From NCBI GenBank assembly GCA_019326865.1, contig GCA_019326865.1_4101.1: a stretch of DNA of 64,000 nt; one strand, 5' to 3'. Position 1 is the first letter of the stretch. Each line of letters starts with the position of its first letter. The position numbers and the translations under genes are program-made. Positions 2,887-64,000 of the stretch are shown piece by piece. The notes below the pieces were generated by a model that did not search any database, was not told the DNA's origin, and saw nothing but the letters and a program-made list of their open reading frames with translations. The DNA is from a phage.

Positions 2887-4299
2887 ATGGCTAAAAGTAA
2901 AAAAACAGAAAATCATAACATCGATAACCAAACGCTAACTCTACTAGATTATAACAGTTCTGATTATGTGAATACCACATCATTAGAGTATTCAATGTAC
3001 ACACTAGACCGTGCAATTCCTGGTATTGATGGTCTAAAGAGTTCACAACGAAAAGCAATTTTCACATTATCTAAAATCAGTGGCGAAATTAAAACAGTAT
3101 CATGTGCTGGTAAAATGATCAGTGATGGTATCTATCTTCATGGGGATACATCTGCATCAGGAACACTTCAGAACTTAGCATCACCAGTAGCCAATAATTA
3201 TCCACTAATAGGTAAACGTGGTGGATTTGGTACACAAGTAAATAGCACACCAGCTTCTGCTCGTTATACGTATGTAAAGAAGAATAAAAGTACTGAAATG
3301 CTCGTGTTACGTGATGCTGATATTATTCCAATGAAAGAGAACTATGATGGGACAACATACGAGCCTGTTCACTTCTTGCCTATTATTCCATTATCATTAT
3401 TTGGTAATGATAGTATGTCAGTTGGGTATAAAAGTACAATCCTACCACATAAAATTGAAGATATTATTGACAATTGTATTCGTGCTATTGATAAAAAACC
3501 ACTAAAAGAAATGACACCATACTATGTGTCATGTGGTGCAAGTGATGTAGTAACAAAGCTTGATGAAAATAAGTACGAGTTTTATGGTAAAGCACAAGTT
3601 ATTGATGCCAGCACTGTTAAAGTGACAGGCTTACCACCAAATTATAGTATTGAGAAGTTCATTGAGAAGCTCATTAAAATGTGCGATGATGGAGAGATAC
3701 GTGACTATGATAATAACAGTACTGATGTAATTGATATTACCATTAAACTACCACGTGGAACATCAGCTAAATGGACAGAGAAAGATGTTATTGATTATTT
3801 TGGAATTAACAAAAAGATCACACAACATTTAACTGTCTTAGGTGAAAATGGTAAAGTGAAAGTTTACGATACAACAATGGATTTGATTAAAGACTTCGTG
3901 AATTTCCGTTTCAAATATTACATCAAGCGTTATGAAAAGAAACTTGATGATTGTGCTGCTGAAGTTCGTTATAAAGTTCTAATTAAAGAATGTTTCGATA
4001 ATGATATGATTGCTAAGGTAAAAGGATTTGCCAACCGTGCGGAGATGGTTGAATTCGTTAAATCATTAAATGTCGAAATTCAAGCAACTGAAGATAATAT
4101 TCAAAGTATTGTAAACTTCCCTTCATATCGCTGGACACAAGATAATTATCAATCAGTTCTACAAGATATCCAGGACAATCTTGATTTGATGGATAAGTAC
4201 AATGAACTACTATCTAATCATGACTTAATTTGGGATATCTACAAATCTGAACTCAAAGAACTAAAAAAAACTGACTTTACTCCTAAATCAGACAATTGA
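2887..4299 (+). CDS. 52: DNA topoisomerase II medium subunit (gp52, GyrA-like)
   Basis: 470 aa; GyrA-like N-terminus with SSQRKAIF and RYTYV (active-site Tyr region). Confidence 0.85.
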   Translation: MAKSKKTENHNIDNQTLTLLDYNSSDYVNTTSLEYSMYTLDRAIPGIDGLKSSQRKAIFTLSKISGEIKTVSCAGKMISDGIYLHGDTSASGTLQNLASPVANNYPLIGKRGGFGTQVNSTPASARYTYVKKNKSTEMLVLRDADIIPMKENYDGTTYEPVHFLPIIPLSLFGNDSMSVGYKSTILPHKIEDIIDNCIRAIDKKPLKEMTPYYVSCGASDVVTKLDENKYEFYGKAQVIDASTVKVTGLPPNYSIEKFIEKLIKMCDDGEIRDYDNNSTDVIDITIKLPRGTSAKWTEKDVIDYFGINKKITQHLTVLGENGKVKVYDTTMDLIKDFVNFRFKYYIKRYEKKLDDCAAEVRYKVLIKECFDNDMIAKVKGFANRAEMVEFVKSLNVEIQATEDNIQSIVNFPSYRWTQDNYQSVLQDIQDNLDLMDKYNELLSNHDLIWDIYKSELKELKKTDFTPKSDN

Positions 4300-37055: not shown

Positions 37056-37067
37056 ATAATGGGACAG

Positions 37068-37078
37068 CACAAAAAGAT
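37068..37078 (+). promoter_or_regulatory. extended -10 promoter element TGTGATATAAT immediately upstream of tRNA-Arg
   Basis: TGn-TATAAT about 20 nt upstream of tRNA 5' end. Confidence 0.4.
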
Positions 37079-37098
37079 GTGATATAATTATTAGTACT

Positions 37099-37170
37099 GA
37101 GGGGCTAGTTTAACGGATAAAACAGATTCCTTCTAAGAATCCAATCGGAGTTCGATTCTCCGGCCCTTTA
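37099..37170 (+). tRNA. tRNA-Arg (anticodon UCU)
   Basis: Cloverleaf: D stem GTTT/AAAC, anticodon stem GATTC/GAATC loop CTTCTAA, T arm CGGAG-TTCGATT-CTCCG. Confidence 0.7.
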
Positions 37171-37184
37171 TAAAATATAATATT

Positions 37185-37727
<543 letters not shown>

Positions 37728-37761
37728 TACAATTATATTCCATTAATTAAAAGGGAAAACC

Positions 37762-37926
37762 ATGACCCATGAAGAATGGTTAAGTGAACTAAAGTTCAGA
37801 TACTCCGGCATAGGTAATTGGCGAAAATATCATTGGGAGATTATATCAGACCCAGCAGAATACGATAAACTTATAAATCATGAAGTGTATCCGTGGTTCT
37901 TTATTGAAATAATGGTACGAATATGA
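37762..37926 (+). CDS. MTH-EW mini-protein family member (54 aa)
   Basis: MTHEEWLSELKFRYSGIGNW.KYHWE; tandem array member. Confidence 0.5.
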   Translation: MTHEEWLSELKFRYSGIGNWRKYHWEIISDPAEYDKLINHEVYPWFFIEIMVRI

Positions 37927-38083
37927 CGCATGAAGAATGGATGAATGATATTAATTTTAGATATGCAGGTATTGGTAAATGGCTAAAGTATCATTGGGAA
38001 TTCATTTCAAAGTTGCATCTGTATGATAAACTTATCAACGACCCAGAATATAAAAAGTACTTAATTGAACTAATGGTAAGAAT

Positions 38084-38087
<4 letters not shown>
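37923..38087 (+). CDS. MTH-EW mini-protein family member (54 aa)
   Basis: MTHEEWMNDINFRYAGIGKWLKYHWE; ATGA-coupled. Confidence 0.5.
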
Positions 38088-38248
<161 letters not shown>

Positions 38249-38261
38249 TTAAAAAAAAAGC

Positions 38262-38699
<438 letters not shown>

Positions 38700-38708
38700 G
38701 TATTCAAT

Positions 38709-38782
<74 letters not shown>

Positions 38783-38840
38783 AAATTTAATAGGAGATGA
38801 TATGTTTAACGATGAACATCCAGATTTCTAAAAAAAGTTC

Positions 38841-38869
38841 TTGACCAAATAATTCAGAACTGATATCAT
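38841..38869 (+). promoter_or_regulatory. sigma70-like promoter variant (TTGACC-17-TATCAT)
   Basis: Conserved promoter repeat with substitutions. Confidence 0.45.
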
Positions 38870-38901
38870 GTTTGTATATCAACAACAGAGGGTATATCGA
38901 A

Positions 38902-39141
38902 ATGGGTAAATATTTTGTGAGTTATAGTTATAATGTATCACGAAAAATTCCACGTGGTGACGGAATGGGATGGTCTTATGATGCATATACTTTAAATGAG
39001 TCATGTATCATCGAATTAAAAGAAAAAGACCTTGACATTCTAAAAATCAAACAATATATTCTTGATGTTGAATTGGCACATCGTACTGATATCTATCCAG
39101 ATGTAAATAACATCAGCATCTTAGTACTAACCAAAGTATAA
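38902..39141 (+). CDS. hypothetical small protein
   Basis: Start moved to ATG 38902 downstream of predicted transcription start; 79 aa. Confidence 0.45.
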   Translation: MGKYFVSYSYNVSRKIPRGDGMGWSYDAYTLNESCIIELKEKDLDILKIKQYILDVELAHRTDIYPDVNNISILVLTKV

Positions 39142-39152
39142 GATAAAAGCAC

Positions 39153-39443
<291 letters not shown>

Positions 39444-39444
39444 T

Positions 39445-39537
<93 letters not shown>

Positions 39538-39554
39538 TTCACATGATATAGGGA

Positions 39555-39816
<262 letters not shown>

Positions 39817-39824
39817 GAATTTAA

Positions 39825-40226
39825 ATGAAAAAGAATGACTTGATCAAAATGCTTCAAGAAATTGACGGCAATCCAGAGATTGTTATTTGGAATGGATACG
39901 TCGATGATTATATGAACATCGAAAAAGGCTTGACTAAAATCACTCTAGTCAAAGAAACCGAACAGTTTCTTCAGGGTGCATTAGAGCACGAATGGTGTGA
40001 ACGTAACAATACATTCGACATTCCAGAAGACCAACGAACCAAGATTGCAGAACGTGCTAAAGAACTGCATAAGAAACGCGAATACGATTTCCAGAACCCA
40101 TATGTCACTGAAGACGAATTCAATCGCTGGTACGGTAAAAAGAAATTGACAAAGTATGTCCTTTCACCTAAACTACGTGGTAAGACTTCACTTGGTGTAT
40201 TCAACGCCGCAGACTTAAACTACTAG
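39825..40226 (+). CDS. hypothetical protein
   Basis: ORF 133 aa. Confidence 0.5.
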   Translation: MKKNDLIKMLQEIDGNPEIVIWNGYVDDYMNIEKGLTKITLVKETEQFLQGALEHEWCERNNTFDIPEDQRTKIAERAKELHKKREYDFQNPYVTEDEFNRWYGKKKLTKYVLSPKLRGKTSLGVFNAADLNY

Positions 40227-40238
40227 CGGGTATTATAA

Positions 40239-40503
<265 letters not shown>

Positions 40504-40547
40504 GATTCCCGATTCAGTAGTTTTAAAGCTGACCCGTATGTGCCTAT

Positions 40548-40589
<42 letters not shown>

Positions 40590-40590
40590 G

Positions 40591-40647
<57 letters not shown>

Positions 40648-40649
40648 TT

Positions 40650-40730
<81 letters not shown>

Positions 40731-40731
40731 G

Positions 40732-40782
<51 letters not shown>

Positions 40783-40799
40783 TACAACCGACAATGACT

Positions 40800-40874
<75 letters not shown>

Positions 40875-40926
40875 TGCCAAACAGCTTGAAGTACTTTGTA
40901 GTGCTGCACCTATGCCGACACTTGGC

Positions 40927-41027
<101 letters not shown>

Positions 41028-41039
41028 TATCTTACTTCT

Positions 41040-41129
<90 letters not shown>

Positions 41130-48906: not shown

Positions 48907-49331
48907 TGAGAGCGTATAATAAGATTTGTATTTTTGTATTTTTAGTTTGTGCATTCAATTCATTTGGATACTACTGCATCGAAAACAACATTTCATATGG
49001 TTTAAATCCGTTATGGTTTTCAATTGCCAATGTAGTACAAATAAGTATTGCTGTTTTAGCCGCACTTATGTTCTGTCCAATTGTCACAATAGATAGTGAA
49101 TATGAAAAGCTTGGATTTCTACGTGATACGGGAGATGAACCTTACAATAAATGGTTAGTATTGTATCCATTTTTAATGATGCTAGGTATTAATATTCAAT
49201 TAGGTGCAACAACCAATAGTATTACATCAGCAGCCATTGCTGTATTTGCATTCACATTTTTAACGATTCACCGCTCAATATGTCATTGGCACATTACAAA
49301 AATGGCAGAGGAAGGTACTCAAAATACTTGA
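48906..49331 (+). CDS. integral membrane protein
   Basis: 141 aa; about 4 hydrophobic helices. Confidence 0.5.
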   Translation: MRAYNKICIFVFLVCAFNSFGYYCIENNISYGLNPLWFSIANVVQISIAVLAALMFCPIVTIDSEYEKLGFLRDTGDEPYNKWLVLYPFLMMLGINIQLGATTNSITSAAIAVFAFTFLTIHRSICHWHITKMAEEGTQNT

Positions 49332-49355
49332 CATAATTTAGTATTTTATATATAA
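49327..49355 (+). promoter_or_regulatory. sigma70-like promoter (TTGACA-17-TATAAT)
   Basis: Consensus hexamers upstream of ORF 49390. Confidence 0.5.
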
Positions 49356-49389
49356 TTATTTCATAAAAAGAAATTTGAGTGAGGAACTT

Positions 49390-49641
49390 ATGAACATTGA
49401 TAAGGTCAAAGAAATTAGTGCAGCACTAATTAAAAATGAAGAAGTTTGTGAAGAACTTCGCAGTACTATCAAAGTTGAGTACGCGAGATTGCAAGGTATG
49501 CTTCAAGAATCTGAATGGGTAGTAACTAAATCTATCGAAGCAATCTATAAGGATATCGAATCCCTTTTCAACAAGAAAAGTAAGATTGAATCTGATTCAT
49601 ACAATAAGCGTAAAGAATTAAATTCAGCACTCGGTATTTAA
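49390..49641 (+). CDS. hypothetical small protein
   Basis: Start ATG 49390 after GAGGAA; 83 aa. Confidence 0.45.
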   Translation: MNIDKVKEISAALIKNEEVCEELRSTIKVEYARLQGMLQESEWVVTKSIEAIYKDIESLFNKKSKIESDSYNKRKELNSALGI

Positions 49642-49648
49642 AATTCAT

Positions 49649-49676
49649 TTGACATAATAAAAACATGGAGTACAAT
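49649..49676 (+). promoter_or_regulatory. sigma70-like promoter (TTGACA-16-TACAAT)
   Basis: Upstream of ORF 49715. Confidence 0.4.
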
Positions 49677-49714
49677 GTACTCCTAATTTAATTATAAGAT
49701 AAAAGGAAATCATT

Positions 49715-49975
49715 GTGAAATCTATTCTTGTAGCAGTTAATCTTATTGCTTCCCCATCTTTTAACTTCAAAAAAGTTGTTGCTGATAATCTGAAGAAGAT
49801 CTGTCCAAACGCTGAATTGACTTTTTGTGTGTTTGATTCAGAAAAAGTAACTAAAGTTGATTTGAACTATATTTTGAACGATGTACAAGGTATTTCCGGT
49901 GAAAACAACTTAAAAGTTCTTCGTGAGATTGCAGACGATTATGATGACACTTTAGTAATTTCGGAGAAAATCTAA
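49715..49975 (+). CDS. hypothetical small protein (GTG start)
   Basis: ORF 86 aa; AAGGAA upstream. Confidence 0.4.
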   Translation: MKSILVAVNLIASPSFNFKKVVADNLKKICPNAELTFCVFDSEKVTKVDLNYILNDVQGISGENNLKVLREIADDYDDTLVISEKI

Positions 49976-49980
49976 ATCAA

Positions 49981-50400
49981 ATGATTAGATTCATTCAGTA
50001 CTTAATCATTAATTTTTTTGGCTATCATACGATTGAAGGAAAAGCTACACTTGCACATAAAATTTTTGTAGCATTATGTACAGGTGATTATGACGTATTG
50101 AATAAGTACTGTAAATCTCAAGCATGTATTGATATAATGGCACTTCGTATCTATGAGTGCCAGTTCTTTAGATACAATTTTTACCAGTACAGATTTGATA
50201 AACAAGAATTTGATAGTTTTGAAATGTTAAAAAATTTATGCAACAATAAAAAGAATATGCATATATCAGAATTTGTTGCTTTGTATTTTTATTTAAAAAG
50301 TTCATTGTTTATGAATACGAGTCAACTTTTTGATACTAGATTTAATGTATTCAAAGGTAAAGAATTTGACATATATGATAAATTCTTAGATAAGGTGTAA
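49981..50400 (+). CDS. hypothetical protein
   Basis: ORF 139 aa. Confidence 0.5.
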   Translation: MIRFIQYLIINFFGYHTIEGKATLAHKIFVALCTGDYDVLNKYCKSQACIDIMALRIYECQFFRYNFYQYRFDKQEFDSFEMLKNLCNNKKNMHISEFVALYFYLKSSLFMNTSQLFDTRFNVFKGKEFDIYDKFLDKV

Positions 50401-50401
50401 T

Positions 50402-50899
50402 ATGACAACTGTTTATATTGATAAACGATTAAATTTGTTGATTACCGATTCTAGAGTTACATTAACTATACCACGAAACTTATTTGGTCTTTTCCCACTA
50501 AGACCAAAATATCAATATGGAATTGTTAATCAAAAAACTTTGTATGTACATGATCGTTTATTCAGTGCTAGTGGTTCGGTAAGTGAAATTGATAAAGTAC
50601 TTAATTGGTTGATTAACAAAGTACCAATTATCCCTGACAGAAAATTAAGTTGTCATTGTATTCTACTTTCCAAAGATTATATCATTCATTTGATTTTATC
50701 TAATGGTGAGTTTACAAAAAAACTTGAGTATCTACATAAAGACTACACATTCTTTATGGGAAGTGGTGGGGAATACATGGTAGATGCAGCTATTCATGAA
50801 GAGTATACAACTTTATATGATAAAGTACTTAGAACTTTTATGGATGTGCATAATCATGATTGTTTCACCGATGATAATATTAATGTATATCGTTTTTGA
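50402..50899 (+). CDS. hypothetical protein
   Basis: ORF 165 aa. Confidence 0.5.
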   Translation: MTTVYIDKRLNLLITDSRVTLTIPRNLFGLFPLRPKYQYGIVNQKTLYVHDRLFSASGSVSEIDKVLNWLINKVPIIPDRKLSCHCILLSKDYIIHLILSNGEFTKKLEYLHKDYTFFMGSGGEYMVDAAIHEEYTTLYDKVLRTFMDVHNHDCFTDDNINVYRF

Positions 50900-50920
50900 T
50901 TTTTTCATTAGGAGACGTAA

Positions 50921-51874
50921 TTGAAAAAACTAGATTTGAATGCAATTGCAGATGAAGTACTGGATGAATGTTTTTCTAGTGAAGAAGTCAATACACTTGA
51001 TGCATTAGATTCAGTTCAAGATGAAGATAAAGTTCAAAGTAATTTCAAGTTTAATATTAGTCTTAAGCGTCCACATAATGTAACAAATGAAGATCTAATT
51101 CGTGATATTCAAGCTGGAATCAATGTAAAGAAAAACACTGAACTATTAGTTCGTTATAATTATGGACTAATTGTTGATGTTGCAAGTAAATGCACATGTT
51201 ATATCCCATTTGAAGATAAGATATCATATGGTATTGAGGGATTCATGCGAGCACTAAAAACATTTGATCTTAGTAAGAATGTCAAGTTCGTTACATACGC
51301 ATCTTCCAGCATTTATATGACAGTATACAATGAAAGTTCAGATGCCAATCATCTGGTACATTTTCCCCGCTATATGAGTGTTAATAAGATCCAAGTTAAA
51401 CGCTTTTGTCATGAATACGAGCGTAAGCACGGTTGTCGTCCAACACCTGAACAAATTTCAGAGGGAACGGGAATTGAAATTCAACATGTAAAGAATTGTT
51501 TGTTATTCCAAAGTGAATATACGGCATTGGATGCACCATTGGATGGTGTTTCGGATGGTACGTTAAGTGATATTCTTCATACATCTGCTTGCGATTATAA
51601 TCTTAGTGTTGATAGTATTCGTGCACCGTTGCGTTATGTCATTAATGATCTAACACATGAATTGAGTACAAAAGAACGTGAAATTATCCAGCGTGTTCAT
51701 GGTTTAGGTGAATTTAATCCTGAATCACTACGTGAAATTGCTGATAGTGGGTTTGTTGATGACAATGGTAAATGTGTTAAATCAAGATCATCTGTGCACC
51801 GTAAATATAGTGAAGCTATAAAAAAGCTTAAGAAATTAGTACTTGAAAAAGGGTACGAATACGAAGATTTCTAA
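50921..51874 (+). CDS. sigma70-family RNA polymerase sigma factor-like protein (TTG start)
   Basis: 317 aa; region 2.2-like GIEGFMRALKTFDLSKNVKFVTYASSSI, region 2.3/2.4-like HLVHFPRYMSVNKIQ..GCRPTPEQISE, region 4-like EREIIQRVHGLGE..SLREIAD...KSRSSVHRKYSEAIKKLKK; AGGAG before TTG. Confidence 0.6.
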   Translation: MKKLDLNAIADEVLDECFSSEEVNTLDALDSVQDEDKVQSNFKFNISLKRPHNVTNEDLIRDIQAGINVKKNTELLVRYNYGLIVDVASKCTCYIPFEDKISYGIEGFMRALKTFDLSKNVKFVTYASSSIYMTVYNESSDANHLVHFPRYMSVNKIQVKRFCHEYERKHGCRPTPEQISEGTGIEIQHVKNCLLFQSEYTALDAPLDGVSDGTLSDILHTSACDYNLSVDSIRAPLRYVINDLTHELSTKEREIIQRVHGLGEFNPESLREIADSGFVDDNGKCVKSRSSVHRKYSEAIKKLKKLVLEKGYEYEDF

Positions 51875-51881
51875 AGAACAA

Positions 51882-51910
51882 GGGTTGACTTAGGTCAGCC
51901 CTTTTTTTAT
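51882..51910 (+). terminator. rho-independent terminator (GGGTTGAC ttag GTCAGCCC + T7)
   Basis: Member of 3-copy terminator family (also 60001, 62796). Confidence 0.7.
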
Positions 51911-51959
51911 GGGACAAATTATAAAGTTATGATATACTTATTGTGTACAATTTTGTTGA

Positions 51960-52440
51960 ATGCAGAAATGCATATAAATTAGAACCTGATCCTATCGAAA
52001 ATGTAGATGGCAGATGAGCAGTTCAACAATGCGATGAGCAAAAGAAACCCGTTAGATGTGGGCATAGTTTGAACCCCTCACGGCAATGCGGCTCAATAAA
52101 GAACCATGTTAGGATAGATAATGGTTCCTTGATAGACATATAAGGATAACACCTTACGAATTATCTAAGGGAGAGTTATCAAATTTTGTACAGGAAAGTT
52201 GCGTCCAAAATTTGAGTACTCACATTAAGTATTTGATTGCATAGATACTTAATGAAGATACACTATGTTTAAAAGTGTAGACCGTCATATGAAACTGAAG
52301 TAGAGAGAAACAGGATGACCCGCTTTCGCACTCACTATGAGTAATCTTCAATGCAATAGCACTGATACCATCAGCGTCAAATTTCCCTCCGCAGTGGGGG
52401 GAAGAAAAATCACCTCCTCAAATCCCGTCAATATTAAAAG
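51960..52440 (+). other. ORF-free, hairpin-rich region: candidate structured non-coding RNA or cis-regulatory element
   Basis: No ORF >=60 aa on either strand; several nested/serial inverted repeats (AACCAT..ATGGTT; GATAAC[CCTTA..TAAGG]GTTATC; CATTAAGT..ACTTAATG; ACACT..AGTGT; CTGAT..ATCAG). Confidence 0.3.
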
Positions 52441-52443
52441 TCC

Positions 52444-52472
52444 TTGACAGTTATTAATCATTCGCGTAGAAT
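52444..52472 (+). promoter_or_regulatory. sigma70-like promoter (TTGACA-17-TAGAAT)
   Basis: Upstream of ORF 52537. Confidence 0.5.
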
Positions 52473-52536
52473 ACGTAGTATTAGAAGCGAACAGACATCT
52501 CGAAGAGATGGATGATTAACTATTGAGGAATATCCA

Positions 52537-52746
52537 ATGAATTCAGTAATCTTTTTAGTAGTCGCTCTTTCAATTCAATCCGGTGTACAAATTACCCCAA
52601 TGAACTCAATGAACCAATGTTTTTCAGTGCGTGACAGTACTTATGAACAAGTAAACCACATGTCACTTATGACAGTTAGTAAAGAAAGTATGTGGTGTTA
52701 CAATAGTAATACTAACACAAAGCTTATTGTAGGACAAAATCAATGA
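52537..52746 (+). CDS. small protein with signal-peptide-like N-terminus
   Basis: 69 aa; MNSVIFLVVALSIQSGVQ. Confidence 0.45.
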   Translation: MNSVIFLVVALSIQSGVQITPMNSMNQCFSVRDSTYEQVNHMSLMTVSKESMWCYNSNTNTKLIVGQNQ

Positions 52747-52974: not shown

Positions 52975-53763
52975 ATGAGCACTATAGATGAACTGATTCG
53001 ACGGAATTCAAAATACTACAAACCATCAGAAATTGTAGGTAACATTACCAAATCAGAGTTTGGTCCAAATACTCGAAAACTAATTCATGTAATGTCACGT
53101 GATGGCTTTAAATGTGATTGTTGTGGTGCATCCAATGTGGTATTCACTTTGCATAAGCACAGTTCTAAAGACCGTTATAAATTCAGACCTTATGTACTTA
53201 AAGGGAAACGCCTTGTACGCATGACGTTAGACCATAATGTACTGGACTGTCTTCAGGGTGGTAATGATAAAGAGAACATGACTGCATTATGTGAAGATTG
53301 TAACGCATTACGCCAACATAAGTTTGCTGAGTACAGTGAGTTTAAACACTGGTATCATAATGCGGATCGTTCAATCGAGCCGAACGTTAACTACTGCTTC
53401 ATTGAGTACATTAAGAATGCTAAAGATACACATATTCTTAAATCTATGGAACCAATTACCGTGTTTCCAATGAACCTATTCACTACATTAAAGAATAGTT
53501 TTATGGTAGGTGATATTGATGCATTCAAGTATTTTGACAAAGGTGCAAAACATTTTGAAGTTCAATGTCTTAGTACTGCACTATGTGAACTTATTAAAAT
53601 TTACATAAAAGATTATTTGGGTATTGACAATGTACGCGTACCAGAGTATACTTTTTCTATTGATTTCGATTGTGAATCAATCAAAGAGTTTGGGATTCTT
53701 TTCAATAAACAAATAGAACTTGCAATTCAAAACGAAATCAAGTACTATAATACTAACATTTAA
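52975..53763 (+). CDS. HNH endonuclease
   Basis: 262 aa; CDCCG..(H)..TLDHNVLDCLQGGNDKENMTALCEDCNALRQH (HNH core with Cys pairs). Confidence 0.7.
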   Translation: MSTIDELIRRNSKYYKPSEIVGNITKSEFGPNTRKLIHVMSRDGFKCDCCGASNVVFTLHKHSSKDRYKFRPYVLKGKRLVRMTLDHNVLDCLQGGNDKENMTALCEDCNALRQHKFAEYSEFKHWYHNADRSIEPNVNYCFIEYIKNAKDTHILKSMEPITVFPMNLFTTLKNSFMVGDIDAFKYFDKGAKHFEVQCLSTALCELIKIYIKDYLGIDNVRVPEYTFSIDFDCESIKEFGILFNKQIELAIQNEIKYYNTNI

Positions 53764-62867: not shown

Positions 62868-64000
62868 ATGGCTAGTGGGATACGATTAACACAAGAAGAA
62901 GCTGAAAAATTAGTAGCGAATAGATGTTTAGAACAAAATTATACATATAAACCTTTCACTTATATTAACACTAAAACAATATTAGAACTTAAATGTGATA
63001 ACTTTGAACATGAAGAATGGAAATGTAAATTTAGTAAATTCATTTACAAAAGAACTGGGTGTCCAGAATGTAAAGGAAGAAATTCTTTAAAAGAAAAAAC
63101 AGCAAGAACTAAAGTTCATGAAATATGTGAATTAAAAGGATATACTTATGAACCATTTGATTTTAACGGTGCTATAGGAACAAAAATAATAATTCATTGT
63201 GGAGTTGACTCCCATAAACCACATGAAACTAATTATAATTCTTTAGTTAATAAGAAAAATGGATGTATTGAGTGTGGTGGAAAGTTAAAATTAACCCAAC
63301 AACAAGCAGAATTAAATGTAATTAACATATGTAATACTACTGGATATACTTATAAACCTTTTGAATATAAAAATAATAGAACTAAAATTACATTAAAATG
63401 TTGCAATCCAGACCATGATGAATTTAGTTTAAGTTATGATAAATTTGTATATCAAGGTAATGGGTGTGTAAAATGTGGAAATCAATCCACAGCTAGAAAA
63501 CTTTGTCTTTCACAAGATGAATCAATTAAAAGGCTTAATGAAATTTGTACATCTAAAGGATATACTTATAAACCATTTATATATAAAAATGTACATACAT
63601 TAATTACATTAAAATGTTCAGAATGTGAACATCCTGAATGGACAACTCGATATCAAAATATTGTTCAAAAGCAAAGAGGTTGTCCAAGTTGTAGTCGAGG
63701 TGGATATGACCCAAGTAAACCTGGTTATTTTTATATACATCGAGTTCTAGGTAATGGTAGGATATATTATAAATTTGGTATAACAAACAATTATATATAC
63801 AGATTTGAACAATATAATAAGAACTTATTTAGAACTGAAAAATATAAAACATATTACAGTACTGATGGTATTTTAATCAAAGAACTTGAATATTTTATTA
63901 AACATATGAGTGGCATAAAAAGAAAAGTTATTGATAAAATAAATTATTTGGACGGGTATACTGAAACAATCAATGAATCAGAATATGAAAAATTAATAAA
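62868..64000 (+). CDS. protein with four tandem Cys-rich (zinc-ribbon-like) repeats and C-terminal GIY-YIG-like (T5orf172-like) segment; 3'-truncated by window edge
   Basis: ORF open to window end (not in ORF track); repeats each contain GYTY(K/E)PF ... C..(C/H) ... GC.(E/K/S)C; followed by GYFYIHRVLGNGRIYYKFGIT. Confidence 0.6.
   Translation, partial: MASGIRLTQEEAEKLVANRCLEQNYTYKPFTYINTKTILELKCDNFEHEEWKCKFSKFIYKRTGCPECKGRNSLKEKTARTKVHEICELKGYTYEPFDFNGAIGTKIIIHCGVDSHKPHETNYNSLVNKKNGCIECGGKLKLTQQQAELNVINICNTTGYTYKPFEYKNNRTKITLKCCNPDHDEFSLSYDKFVYQGNGCVKCGNQSTARKLCLSQDESIKRLNEICTSKGYTYKPFIYKNVHTLITLKCSECEHPEWTTRYQNIVQKQRGCPSCSRGGYDPSKPGYFYIHRVLGNGRIYYKFGITNNYIYRFEQYNKNLFRTEKYKTYYSTDGILIKELEYFIKHMSGIKRKVIDKINYLDGYTETINESEYEKLI
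62925..63750 (+). repeat. four tandem about 200-215 bp coding repeats inside ORF 62868-end
   Basis: GGATATACTTATAAACC(A/T)TTT recurs at about 63141, 63345, 63561 with similar downstream Cys codon spacing. Confidence 0.6.

Follow-up and report, generated by a model that had tools for sequence, protein, structure and literature searches.

What lies in the gap behind the sigma-factor gene of this phage, where a series of inverted repeats is found? In the window (the whole stretch of 64,000 nt that was analysed), neither strand has an ORF of 60 aa or more between the stop of the sigma gene (51874) and the next ATG (52537). This agrees with the original prediction of an ORF-free region at 51960-52440, in which the largest ORFs are of 38, 43, 36 and 37 aa. 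The region had also been described as less AT-rich than its surroundings: G+C is 0.37-0.43 over 51900-52500, compared with 0.22-0.34 over most of 49000-51300 and with 0.32-0.36 on the downstream side. As the 3' half of the sigma gene likewise has a G+C of 0.34-0.40, the contrast is real but modest. The upstream neighbour is a sigma factor by Pfam (Sigma70_r2/r3), as predicted, but the expected HNH endonuclease downstream was not recovered, the 262-aa ORF there having no HNH match and no Pfam match at all. The inverted repeats are all present where they were noted, among them AAAGAACCAT/ATGGTTCCTT (52098-52130), GATAAC/GTTATC (52145-52180), CATTAAGTAT/ATACTTAATG (52223-52254) and TACACT/AGTGTA (52259-52279); CTGAT/ATCAG and CCTCC/GGGGG can be read off the sequence itself.

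The terminator (51882-51910) and promoter (52444-52472) between which the region had been placed were both confirmed. The limits were shifted: the conserved sequence begins about 13 nt earlier than predicted, at about 51947, and ends at about 52431, and a promoter in front of it (51911-51938) had been missed. The unit is delimited as follows.

51880 to 51910, + strand: intrinsic terminator of the sigma-factor gene (stem and T-run), outside the RNA, 5' boundary of the unit
51911 to 51938, + strand: predicted promoter of the RNA, GGGACA-16-TATACT with a TG extended -10 (TGATATACT), by consensus match
51947 to 52431, + strand: full-length conserved RNA element (about 485 nt), by nhmmer, covariance models, blastn and the conserved leader
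52444 to 52472, + strand: sigma-70-type promoter TTGACA-17-TAGAAT of the downstream small genes, by motif, 3' boundary

The terminator consists of a 10-bp stem (51880-51903) followed by the T-run, and the downstream promoter matches the consensus at 11 of 12 positions. From its own promoter, transcription of the element would start at about 51945-51947. A -10 element is found upstream of all 26 copies inspected, in the extended form TGnTATAAT or TGnTATACT in 25 of them, the exception being the XaC1 copy with a weaker -10 match. A promoter of the same type, GGGACA-N-TGATATAAT, lies 10 nt before the tRNA at 37099 in the window. In CBB-type phages the promoters of the element would belong to the class named 'TGAAACG', which is linked there to DNA-synthesis genes (PMC5259590). 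A terminator was sought between the RNA and the 52444-52472 promoter in the window copy, and none is present. Many other clades carry a terminator-like insert, a hairpin plus U-run, directly after R1, the first of two direct repeats in the element, and such an intrinsic terminator probably ends the transcript in about half of the clades.

Homologues were found by blastn in 62-63 phage records, at 3-5 places per genome; identity is 90-97% for Asteriusvirus, against 67-76% for the other genera. They belong to one clade of jumbo myoviruses with hosts in Enterobacterales and Xanthomonas. Pattern scans found jumbo-phage contigs only; no copy was found in the bacterial genome contigs scanned, and two matches in Hyphomicrobiales are G+C-rich coding sequence that has only a 29-nt pattern in common with the element. 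The RNA family, of about 450-550 nt, is confined to Rak2-like jumbo phages, every sampled member of which keeps about four paralogues, and it makes up about 2 kb of ORF-free sequence per 350-kb genome. For the window copy, which is itself in the seed alignment, the nhmmer match spans 51966-52457, and covariance models R2 and R1 score 162.7 bits over 51979-52131 and 146 bits over 52264-52436. Outside the seed, the complete Asteriusvirus genome OR844650.1 carries exactly four copies on one strand by both models (95-167 bits), and RaK2 has a divergent copy directly after its sigma gene (nhmmer E = 1.4e-36; 107.7 and 51.3 bits with the covariance models). The window copy matches both domain models and carries the blocks CGGCAAUGCGGC, GAUAGAC, AAGGGAG, GACCGU, ACCCGC and, twice, CGUCA. 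No further copies were found within the window by blastn, nhmmer or either covariance model.

The paralogues are 57-77% identical and lie 53-110 kb apart, each at a fixed syntenic position across genera; the sigma-proximal copy is known from RaK2 to Asteriusvirus. They are anciently diverged, without homogenisation, and this level of identity, with a fold held in common since before the genera split, argues against a recently spreading repeat. Each is followed by a second conserved module, AAAAUYCUUGAC-hairpin-GGCRA. All are co-oriented with a following gene cluster, but in the L005, L012 type the genes that come next are read in the opposite direction, and the downstream genes belong to unrelated families in different paralogue types. 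A constant protein partner gene, for example the 262-aa HNH-like ORF, was considered and rejected, as the neighbours vary by paralogue type and that ORF has no Pfam match. Part of the element is annotated 'repeat_region' in the UE-S1 record, and 'hypothetical protein' CDSs overlie it in GenBank (RaK2 ORF245; 3-5 small ORFs in several Escherichia and Salmonella phage records). No published description of the RNA family was found in the literature searched.

The leading option of the original prediction, a structured non-coding RNA, is supported by these comparative data and by the element's own promoter. The main alignment, of 26 copies less than 96% identical, was made with MAFFT using no structural information. 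The conserved structure is present in the homologues, with 87.0% of cells paired compared with 38-43% (about 41%) in slid controls. Compensatory (double) changes occur in 69 of 108 pairs (22-32 in the slid controls), the covariation score is 0.403 (0.07-0.09), and none of 500 shuffles comes up to the real alignment in paired fraction, in number of double changes or in covariation score. In the 3' core, aligned for 37 copies with a covariance model from which pseudoknot PK3 was absent, 93.4% of cells are paired (48-55% in controls). G·U pairs outnumber A·C mismatches by 3 to 1 (177 versus 62), and the fold is therefore assigned to the + strand. Taken alone, the sequence folds in a way that is only mildly unusual (z = -2.5 for the + strand and -3.6 for the - strand); the covariation in homologues is the decisive evidence that the structure is beyond chance. 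Five of the six inverted repeats originally noted correspond to helices with compensatory changes, in at least six phage lineages, while CTGAT/ATCAG, within R1, is not conserved.

The architecture on the + strand comprises about 17 helices and divides into a 5' domain (P1-P5) and a 3' portion that includes pseudoknots PK1-PK3. The helices covary, while little or no variation is seen in loops and junctions such as CGGCAAUGCGGC, GAUAGAC, AAGGGAG, GACCGU and GAAACAG..ACCCGC. The features up to P8 are the following.

51947 to 51973, + strand: conserved 5' leader ACAAUUUUGUUGA, then hairpin P0 (comparison of copies)
51986 to 52013, + strand: P1, interrupted helix with conserved loop GAAAAUGUA (7 of 8 pairs changed on both sides)
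52018 to 52032, + strand: P2, hairpin GCA/UGC, loop with UUCAA (100% paired)
52035 to 52095, + strand: P3 (52035-39/52091-95), enclosing P4 and the invariant 12-mer (covariation, invariant columns)
52101 to 52127, + strand: P5, 7-bp hairpin GAACCAU/AUGGUUC (7 of 7 pairs changed on both sides)
52141 to 52179, + strand: P6 (52141-45/52152-56) and pseudoknot PK1 (read directly from sequences)
52181 to 52213, + strand: P8 hairpin module AAAUUUUG/CAAAAUUU plus AC/GU, with conserved loop (helices 11-12)

The leader motif ACAAYYCUGWUUGA is kept in every paralogue type. P0 (51960-64/51969-73, GAAA loop) forms a hairpin throughout the copies, although its sequence differs from one to the next. The strands of P1 pair at 51986-88/52011-13, 51991-92/52009-10 and 51994-96/52006-08, and the middle pair of P2 is UA in 15 copies, AU in 7 and CG in 4. 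Inside P3 lie P4 (52055-62/52074-79), with its 11-nt loop CAUAGUUUGAA, and the invariant 12-mer at 52081-52092; pairing in helices 4-6 of this region is 100%, 100% and 98.7%, and helices 4 and 6 each have three pairs with compensatory changes. A contact of the P2 loop with the P4 loop (UUCAA/UUGAA) was rejected, as other copies do not keep it. P6 takes the forms AAGG/CCUU, AGG/CCU, GAG/CUC, UGAG/CUCA and AUGG/CCAU among the copies. Its loop (52146-50) pairs with downstream 52175-79 to form PK1, for which at least eight different complementary sequence pairs are seen, and AAGGGAG at 52167-73 is invariant and single-stranded. The hairpin ACCTTA...TAAGG, originally nested within GATAAC/GTTATC, is without support: CCUUA pairs with the upstream UAAGG, so GATAAC/GTTATC is a pseudoknot, and the 3' hairpin CCUUA/UAAGG breaks wherever the middle strand changes in other copies. 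The position of the P8 module differs in the L020/L028 clade, where it is inside helix Pd, and the module is missing from L012 and L022. The remaining features are these.

52223 to 52254, + strand: P9, 10-bp hairpin with loop UUGAUUGCAUAG (10 of 10 pairs changed on both sides)
52236 to 52242, + strand: 5' strand of PK2, AUUGCAU, within the P9 loop (covariation)
52259 to 52279, + strand: P10, hairpin UACACU/AGUGUA, abutting invariant GACCGU (helix 15)
52280 to 52350, + strand: 3' core with invariant GACCGU, PK3, Pb, Pc, Pd and conserved GAAACAG...ACCCGC (37 copies)
52351 to 52357, + strand: 3' strand of PK2, AUGCAAU (covariation)
52355 to 52380, + strand: R1, first of two direct repeats ending CGUCAA (comparison of copies)
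52382 to 52404, + strand: P13, hairpin UUUCCCUCC/GGGGGGAAG with invariant G-run (helix 20)
52406 to 52431, + strand: R2, second direct repeat ending CGUCAA, where conservation ends (comparison of copies)

PK2 is 92.9% paired, with five of seven pairs changed on both sides, and is extended to 9 bp in RaK2 (UUGAAUUGC/GCAAUUCAA). In the 3' core, PK3 (52284-88/52315-19) crosses both Pb (52296-300/52346-50) and Pc (52303-07/52323-27), with Pd at 52330-33/52339-42. Across the 37 copies, pairing is 100% for PK3, 99.5% for Pb, 100% for Pc and 91.9% for Pd, and 15 of the 19 pairs of these helices are changed on both sides. Changes in P13 are mostly one-sided (C to U opposite G). R1 and R2 vary in parallel between copies and can pair with the 5' leader, forming 12 bp in L069/L067 and, in the L028 clade, 9-11 bp; despite such strong pairing in some clades, no single register of a putative 5'-3' closing helix was found that fits all copies. 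P13 and R2 are conserved even behind a terminator-like hairpin, which a model of action in trans leaves unexplained.

The element does not appear to encode a protein. In the window copy, frames run from stop to stop over 65 aa at most, which equals the mean for shuffled sequences (65 +/- 15), and in 36 homologues the longest frames are scattered over strands, frames and positions, with no conserved ORF. A mini-ORF, MH(Q/R)(F/I)CTI, following the Shine-Dalgarno-like AAGGGAG is seen only in the type C copies L002, L004 and L013 and not in the window, and was put down to a by-product of the PK1 sequence. Among the checks proposed in the original prediction, the search for covariation in homologues gave the strong signal described above and the Rfam scan no family match. 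With Rfam 15 (covering, among others, RNase P, group I/II introns, tmRNA, 6S, GOLLD, ROOL, HEARO, OLE and raiA), the gathering scan of the window found six tRNAs and nothing else, nothing overlapped the element body at E up to 10, and seven other copies, including those of RaK2 and XaC1, had no match at E up to 0.5. The element matches no catalogued RNA family.

Several known RNAs resemble the element in part. Bacterial RNase P RNA and group I introns, large pseudoknotted ribozymes that are common in phage and tRNA settings, share its size class, a pseudoknotted core and invariant junction nucleotides. The stretch ACAGGAUGACCCGCUU loosely resembles CR-V of RNase P (ACAGAACCCGGCUU), as does ACAG..ACCCGCUU, but there is no P4 partner strand and no model match, and four copies per genome would be unexpected for RNase P. 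The strand order of the 3' core, a-b-a'-hairpin-b', recalls P3-P7-P3'-P8-P7' of group I introns, but there is no P4-P6 domain between strands a and b, a' lies inside the Pc loop, and the helix order is unlike P3-P9. All paralogue types are intergenic, outside any gene; with a terminator on one side and a promoter on the other, the element has no exons that splicing could restore. A nested pseudoknot of the HDV type was likewise rejected, the order being a-b-c-a'-c'-d-d'-b' rather than a-b-c-c'-a'-d-d'-b'.

A further parallel is seen with ROOL and GOLLD, large 'ornate' RNAs of phages and prophages with cryo-EM structures (PMC12286853). Like the element, they are phage-borne, exceed 400 nt, have covarying helices, pseudoknots and highly conserved unpaired blocks, lack an ORF and share their genomes with tRNA genes. 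The element differs in having no sequence or covariance-model similarity to them, and in its restriction to one jumbo-phage clade, whose genomes each have 3-5 diverged paralogues in fixed syntenic places. ROOL and GOLLD are defined by oligomerisation. In PA5oct, a jumbo phage related by its authors to Rak2-like phages, the lncRNAs ncRNA001-004 were defined by RNA-seq (236-619 nt), and two of them account for about 1-5% of phage reads each, showing that such phages express abundant long non-coding RNAs (PMC7318152). These are ORF-free, long and on the + strand, as is the element. A search for transcriptomes turned up RNA-seq data for PA5oct only, and none for a phage that carries the element. 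No homology to ncRNA001, 002 or 004 was found with nhmmer --max or with models R1 and R2 (best E = 52 and 1.5); by eye only, ncRNA004 was seen to have in common with the element a terminal hairpin like P13 and two AUAGUUU motifs.

We lean towards reading 51947-52431 (+) as a gene in its own right, encoding a large, stable, structured RNA that would act in trans through its conserved tertiary core. Transcription would begin at its own extended -10 promoter, of a class shared with phage tRNA genes, and the transcript would accumulate as a discrete RNA. It may bind a phage or host partner, as a ribonucleoprotein scaffold or decoy, catalyse a reaction, or self-assemble like ROOL and GOLLD. As the same unpaired blocks are found in all paralogues and variation is limited to the stems, the paralogues most likely make the same contacts, and the several copies may serve dosage or different timing. 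It is possible, though rather doubtful, that the family is a new class of large functional RNA in the service of host takeover, whether a ribozyme or a self-assembling or ribonucleoprotein 'ornate' RNA. Since linkage of one copy to the phage's sigma gene extends from RaK2 to Asteriusvirus, RNA polymerase or sigma can be named as a target, as speculation, and the four paralogues might form a hetero-oligomeric set.

The arrangement of the paralogues, syntenic and unhomogenised, is explained by a position-dependent (cis) role no less well than by simple dosage. The original prediction included a long 5' leader, and the transcript of the window copy, having no terminator between it and the downstream genes, may enter them and act as a leader. 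A cis-acting leader, whose folding during synthesis would alter the polymerase or the downstream message as a processive antiterminator (like HK022 put/EAR), an attenuator (the terminator after R1 against read-through) or a processing or stability element, is an unlikely explanation. It would suit the co-orientation of all paralogues with a following gene cluster, dispersed at 53-110 kb, the synteny kept across genera and the module after each paralogue; moreover, R1 and R2 can pair with the 5' leader, and in some copies have a terminator-like hairpin between them, a layout for alternative conformers. However, a strong sigma-70 promoter intervenes, and polymerases starting there never meet the element. 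Known RNA antiterminators are of 65-120 nt, so 485 nt and three pseudoknots are not required, the downstream genes are unrelated among paralogue types, and those of the L005, L012 type point the other way.

ColE1 RNA II, the T4 origin transcripts and HK022 put and EAR are structured transcripts made close to their promoters, with effects in cis on replication or transcription, and may resemble the element's mode if one of the rival readings is right. None of them has sequence or model similarity to the element or is multi-copy and paralogous; put and EAR are much smaller, and the T4 origins are not conserved as a complex tertiary fold. That the element is an origin transcript, a structured RNA made from a middle-type promoter and forming a persistent R-loop that primes the leading strand (as at T4 oriF/oriG or in ColE1 RNA II), with four dispersed origins serving the 350-kb genome, seems improbable. 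The copies are indeed dispersed and co-oriented, they follow the CBB promoter class concentrated at DNA-synthesis genes, that of the window has no terminator, and the size is near that of ColE1 RNA II (about 550 nt); RNase HI, primase and helicases are encoded, according to the annotation of the close relative UE-S1. However, cumulative GC skew changes sign near only one of the four copies (128 kb, where gene orientation flips too), with no change within the window. T4-type origins work without a conserved RNA fold, while the invariant single-stranded blocks and three pseudoknots suggest that the RNA itself is recognised, and the internal terminator-like hairpins of many clades would stop a primer before any obvious unwinding region.

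A site in the DNA or non-functional conservation (a site of recombination or packaging, protein-binding iterons, a gene in decay or a selfish repeat) is very improbable: the element is multi-copy, R1 and R2 flank the inverted repeat P13 as direct repeats do in protein-binding DNA sites, and UE-S1 has its 'repeat_region', but compensatory changes maintain the helices, G·U is tolerated on the + strand only (3 to 1), there is no conserved reading frame, and target-site-like flanks are lacking at the fixed syntenic position of each copy. The recombination or replication site of the original prediction is disfavoured by this + strand wobble pairing and by a GC skew that does not turn at three of the four copies.

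The large, intricately folded non-coding RNAs of bacteria and phages amount, to our knowledge, to no more than about a dozen classes, and nearly all of those with a solved function are ribozymes or form the core of an essential ribonucleoprotein. For ROOL and GOLLD, the building of RNA-only cages was recently shown. The element adds a further large-RNA class, with strong covariation support, three pseudoknots and an unusual multi-paralogue organisation, and it corrects the annotation of 'hypothetical protein' CDSs placed upon it, such as RaK2 ORF245. As it is present in the cultivable E. coli phages 121Q, PBECO4, phAPEC6 and UE-S1, the family is open to genetics, probing and cryo-EM.

The ORF-free stretch downstream of the sigma-like gene (window 51947-52431, + strand, approximately 485 nt; here called the element) is a conserved, multi-copy, pseudoknotted element of RNA type, folded on the + strand and with promoter-like sites upstream, and it is a new family of large structured RNA. 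The main reading of the original prediction, a structured non-coding RNA, was right, as is seen from compensatory pairing, a + strand fold and the lack of any conserved reading frame among the copies, whose longest frames vary in strand, frame and position; in the window copy the longest open frame is as expected from shuffled sequence. The upstream gene (50921-51874) belongs to the sigma-70 family, as predicted, with Pfam matches to Sigma70_r2 and Sigma70_r3, and no ORF of 60 aa or more is found between its stop codon (51874) and the next start codon (52537). All the inverted repeats listed earlier are present, as are the upstream terminator (stem 51880-51903 plus a T-run) and the downstream promoter (TTGACA-17-TAGAAT, 52444-52472), while the reported contrast in base composition holds in direction, G+C being only somewhat higher than in the surroundings. 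A second promoter, overlooked at first (GGGACA-16-TATACT with TG upstream, 51911-51938), lies between the terminator and the element. For the 262-aa ORF at 52975-53760, previously labelled an HNH endonuclease, Pfam gives nothing at E up to 0.01; a CxxC...DH-N...CxxC pattern makes it HNH-like by eye only. BF, CBB and one metagenomic jumbo-phage contig have shorter relatives of this ORF (approximately 180 aa, family F6), located 3.9 kb 3' of their sigma-proximal RNA copies. One terminator sequence, GGTTGACTTCGGTCAGCC followed by a T-run (family D4), occurs three times in the window (51883, 60001 and 62798), and a 48-nt motif (family D1) occurs three times at 63123-63590 with a spacing of 204-216 nt, which may represent repeated domains or small paralogous genes.

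The window is DNA of a jumbo phage of the genus Asteriusvirus, and Escherichia phage UE-S1 is its closest relative (97.5% identity). With blastn, the element is present in 62-63 phage records, at 3-5 places per phage genome. Asteriusvirus copies are 90-97% identical to it, and matches at 67-76% identity are found in Serratia BF, Erwinia SNUABM phages, Pectobacterium CBB, Cronobacter GAP32, Yersinia fHe-Yen9-03/04, the Salmonella Munch and 7t3 group, Klebsiella fENko-Kae01, and Xanthomonas XbC2 and XaC1; when a longer query was used, its 100-135 nt of flanking sequence found no alignment in distant genera. Klebsiella phage RaK2 has a divergent copy directly 3' of its sigma gene (nhmmer E = 1.4e-36; covariance model scores of 107.7 and 51.3 bits), which overlaps the annotated 'ORF245'. 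The CDS RaK2_00245 lies wholly within this copy (3635-3841 of the RaK2 record L075, = JQ513383.1 191634-191840), and several Escherichia and Salmonella phage records, including Asteriusvirus, have 3-5 'hypothetical protein' CDSs placed on the element; the CDSs annotated there probably result from spurious gene prediction. When IMG/VR and metagenomes were scanned by pattern, matches came only from contigs of jumbo-phage size or their fragments, and a scan of 185,579 bacterial and archaeal genomes gave just two chance matches, both in G+C-rich coding sequence. The complete Asteriusvirus genome OR844650.1 (351,992 bp) carries exactly four copies with both covariance models, all on the same strand (approximately 18.3, 128.3, 208.1 and 261.5 kb); no second copy was found in the 64-kb window with blastn, nhmmer or either covariance model. 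Copies sort into paralogue types that are 57-77% identical to one another and have their own conserved neighbours, and thus the duplications are older than the split of the genera. The sigma-proximal type directly adjoins the sigma gene in Asteriusvirus and RaK2, and lies 2-5 kb downstream of it in other genera.

The proposed fold comprises helices (P0-P13, Pb, Pc and Pd), pseudoknots (PK1-PK3) and two direct repeats (R1 and R2).

Anatomy of the element (window coordinates, all + strand)
From 51947: leader, ACAAUUUUGUUGA
51960-73: P0, 5' domain
51986-52013: P1 with loop GAAAAUGUA, 5' domain
52018-32: P2, 5' domain
52035-39 with 52091-95: P3, 5' domain, enclosing P4 (loop CAUAGUUUGAA) and the invariant CGGCAAUGCGGC
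52101-27: P5, 5' domain
Middle part: conserved GAUAGACAUAU
52141-79: P6 with PK1, middle part, around the invariant AAGGGAG
52181-213: P8, middle part
52223-54: P9, middle part
52259-79: P10, middle part
3' core: invariant GACCGU, then PK3, Pb, Pc and Pd (52284-52350 for PK3-Pd), with conserved GAAACAG..ACCCGC
52351-57: 3' strand of PK2, after the 3' core
52355-80: R1 direct repeat, 3' end
52382-404: P13 hairpin, 3' end
52406-31: R2 direct repeat, 3' end

The P8 module is relocated into helix Pd in one clade and absent from another. The invariant UAAGGGAG (52166-52173) resembles a Shine-Dalgarno sequence.

A single sequence proves little here, since the window copy folds only mildly better than shuffles (z = -2.5 on the + strand, -3.6 on the - strand), with no advantage of the + strand. 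The secondary structure was read from alignments, and then tested on A2, a MAFFT alignment of 26 copies less than 96% identical that was built without structural information, against controls in which partners were slid by 1-3 columns. Over 108 pairs, 87.0% of cells have a standard pair (38-43% in slid controls), 69 pairs are changed on both sides (22-32) and the covariation score is 0.403 (0.07-0.09), values matched by none of 500 column shuffles. The covariation that was to be sought in homologous phages is thus strong. Pairing is 89-100% in P2, P3, P4, P5, P9, Pb, Pc and PK3, each of which shows several pair types; the lower values of P0, PK1 and P13 are due to indels misplaced by MAFFT. 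Direct inspection of 36 copies supports P6 (AAGG/CCUU, AGG/CCU, GAG/CUC, UGAG/CUCA and AUGG/CCAU) and PK1 (at least eight different complementary pairs). In a model-guided alignment of 37 copies including RaK2, the 3' domain is 93.4% paired (48-55% in slid controls) and the figure for PK3 is 100%, three of its five pairs having undergone compensatory changes; PK3 is absent from the model and so could not be favoured by model fit. PK2 joins the P9 loop to the strand after Pb by 7 bp (9 bp in RaK2), with the variants UGC/GCA, UGU/ACA, CAU/AUG and GUCGAAU/AUUCGAC. There are 177 G·U pairs against 62 A·C mismatches, identifying the + strand as the folding strand. This strand-specific compensatory pattern contradicts a purely DNA-level site, the other option of the original prediction, which is very improbable.

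A -10 element lies 6-60 nt upstream of the conserved leader in all 26 copies examined, and is extended (TGnTATAAT or TGnTATACT) in 25 of them, XaC1 having a weaker match. The box before it is GGGACA or GAGACA in Asteriusvirus and TGAAAC in CBB-type phages, the latter being the form in a second promoter class of CBB (-35 'TGAAACG' plus a TATA -10) that is concentrated before DNA-synthesis genes (PMC5259590). The promoter type of the window copy, GGGACA-N13-TGATATAAT, is also found 10 nt before the tRNA gene at 37099, and other tRNA genes of the window also closely follow TGnTATAAT; the element's promoter arrangement is thus that of the stable-RNA genes of the phage. The tRNA cluster (37099-41118) has at least six genes, at least three of them closely after an extended -10 TGnTATAAT (37080, 38691 and 39173), and the GGGACA box of the promoter at 37061-37088 is identical to that of the RNA's promoter. 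Immediately 5' of the cluster's second tRNA gene (38709) are two direct-repeat families with a 161-nt period (ATGACNCATGAAGAATGG...; D2 and D3, 37762-38106), which look like tandemly duplicated small genes.

R1 and R2 are direct repeats of approximately 24 nt that both end in CGUCA(A/G) and flank P13 (in the window and copies L028, L020, L069, L067, L005, L012 and L022, among others). The two repeats of a copy vary together, at their variable 5' parts, at an AUC/ACC position and at the final A/G. Between R1 and the 5' leader, 12 bp can form in L069 and in L067, the two differing by compensatory changes; for R2, most of the L028 clade allows a leader pairing of 7-11 bp. Such pairings could be alternative conformers or a closing helix. 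Many clades, approximately half, have an insertion immediately 3' of R1, before P13 and R2, that consists of a terminator-like hairpin with a U-run. The window R2 contains AUCACCUCCU (52410-52419), the same sequence as the 3' terminus of E. coli 16S rRNA; as neither the 121Q-type orthologue (AUCCCUUCCU) nor other paralogues conserve this anti-SD-like stretch, the match is probably due to chance. Most paralogues are followed by a second conserved module of AAAAUYCUUGAC, a short hairpin and GGCRA (for example copies L018, L004, L035, L022 and L005; window 52444-52536), suggesting that the duplicated unit may have included this regulatory region. In CBB-type phages, the module of the sigma-proximal copies has the form of a sigma-70 promoter (TTGACT-17-TAnnnT). 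In another paralogue type it overlaps the next gene's Shine-Dalgarno sequence and ATG, and in a third (L014, L019, L046 and relatives) it is replaced by two further hairpins and an extended -10 (TTGTATAAT).

A stand-alone trans-acting RNA is the most likely reading, with slightly better than an even chance of being correct. It is preferred because loops and junctions are the same in every paralogue, with variation confined to the stems, because the promoter arrangement matches that of the tRNA genes, and because of the terminator after R1 in many clades. Such a discrete, stable RNA would act through its invariant unpaired blocks, and might serve a partner as scaffold or decoy, act as a ribozyme, or self-assemble like ROOL and GOLLD. 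The main rival, a cis-acting leader or antiterminator-attenuator, would account for the fixed positions of the paralogues, the module downstream of the copies, the parallel change and leader pairing of R1 and R2, and the window copy, where no terminator was found before the next promoter; however, a strong promoter separates the RNA from the downstream genes, which in one paralogue type are on the opposite strand, and this reading is unlikely. More doubtful still is a primer RNA for replication origins, a role in keeping with the dispersal of the four copies and with a promoter class linked to DNA synthesis. A conserved tertiary fold is not required at such origins, however, and GC skew turns near just one copy: in OR844650.1 its sign changes in two blocks (approximately 130-180 kb and 318-350 kb), presumably at flips of gene orientation, and only the 128-kb copy adjoins a boundary.

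The Rfam scan that had been proposed placed the element in no known family: at gathering thresholds, Rfam 15 finds six tRNAs only in the whole window, with nothing over the body of the element in 51800-52600 at E up to 10, and no match in seven other copies at E up to 0.5. RNase P (a loose CR-V resemblance) was rejected on inspection, there being no P4 partner strand, as was a group I intron, the 3' core loosely following the P3-P7-P8 order with no P4-P6 domain and no host gene. No published description was found in the literature searched, though some large list of candidates might include the element under no name. RNA-seq has defined long non-coding RNAs in the related jumbo phage PA5oct, showing that these phages produce such RNAs in abundance (PMC7318152). 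No homology was detected with nhmmer and covariance models for ncRNA001, 002 and 004, the three of four compared (all but ncRNA003), despite a P13-like hairpin (UUUCCUUCCC AAAC GGGGAGGAAAU) at the 3' end of ncRNA004 (L076 1117-1735), where two family-like AUAGUUU motifs are also seen. The element is alike in kind to the ornate phage RNAs ROOL and GOLLD, but is unrelated to them in sequence and fold, and is unusual in being kept as approximately four ancient paralogues per genome. The family occurs in cultivable coliphages and so lends itself to direct testing.
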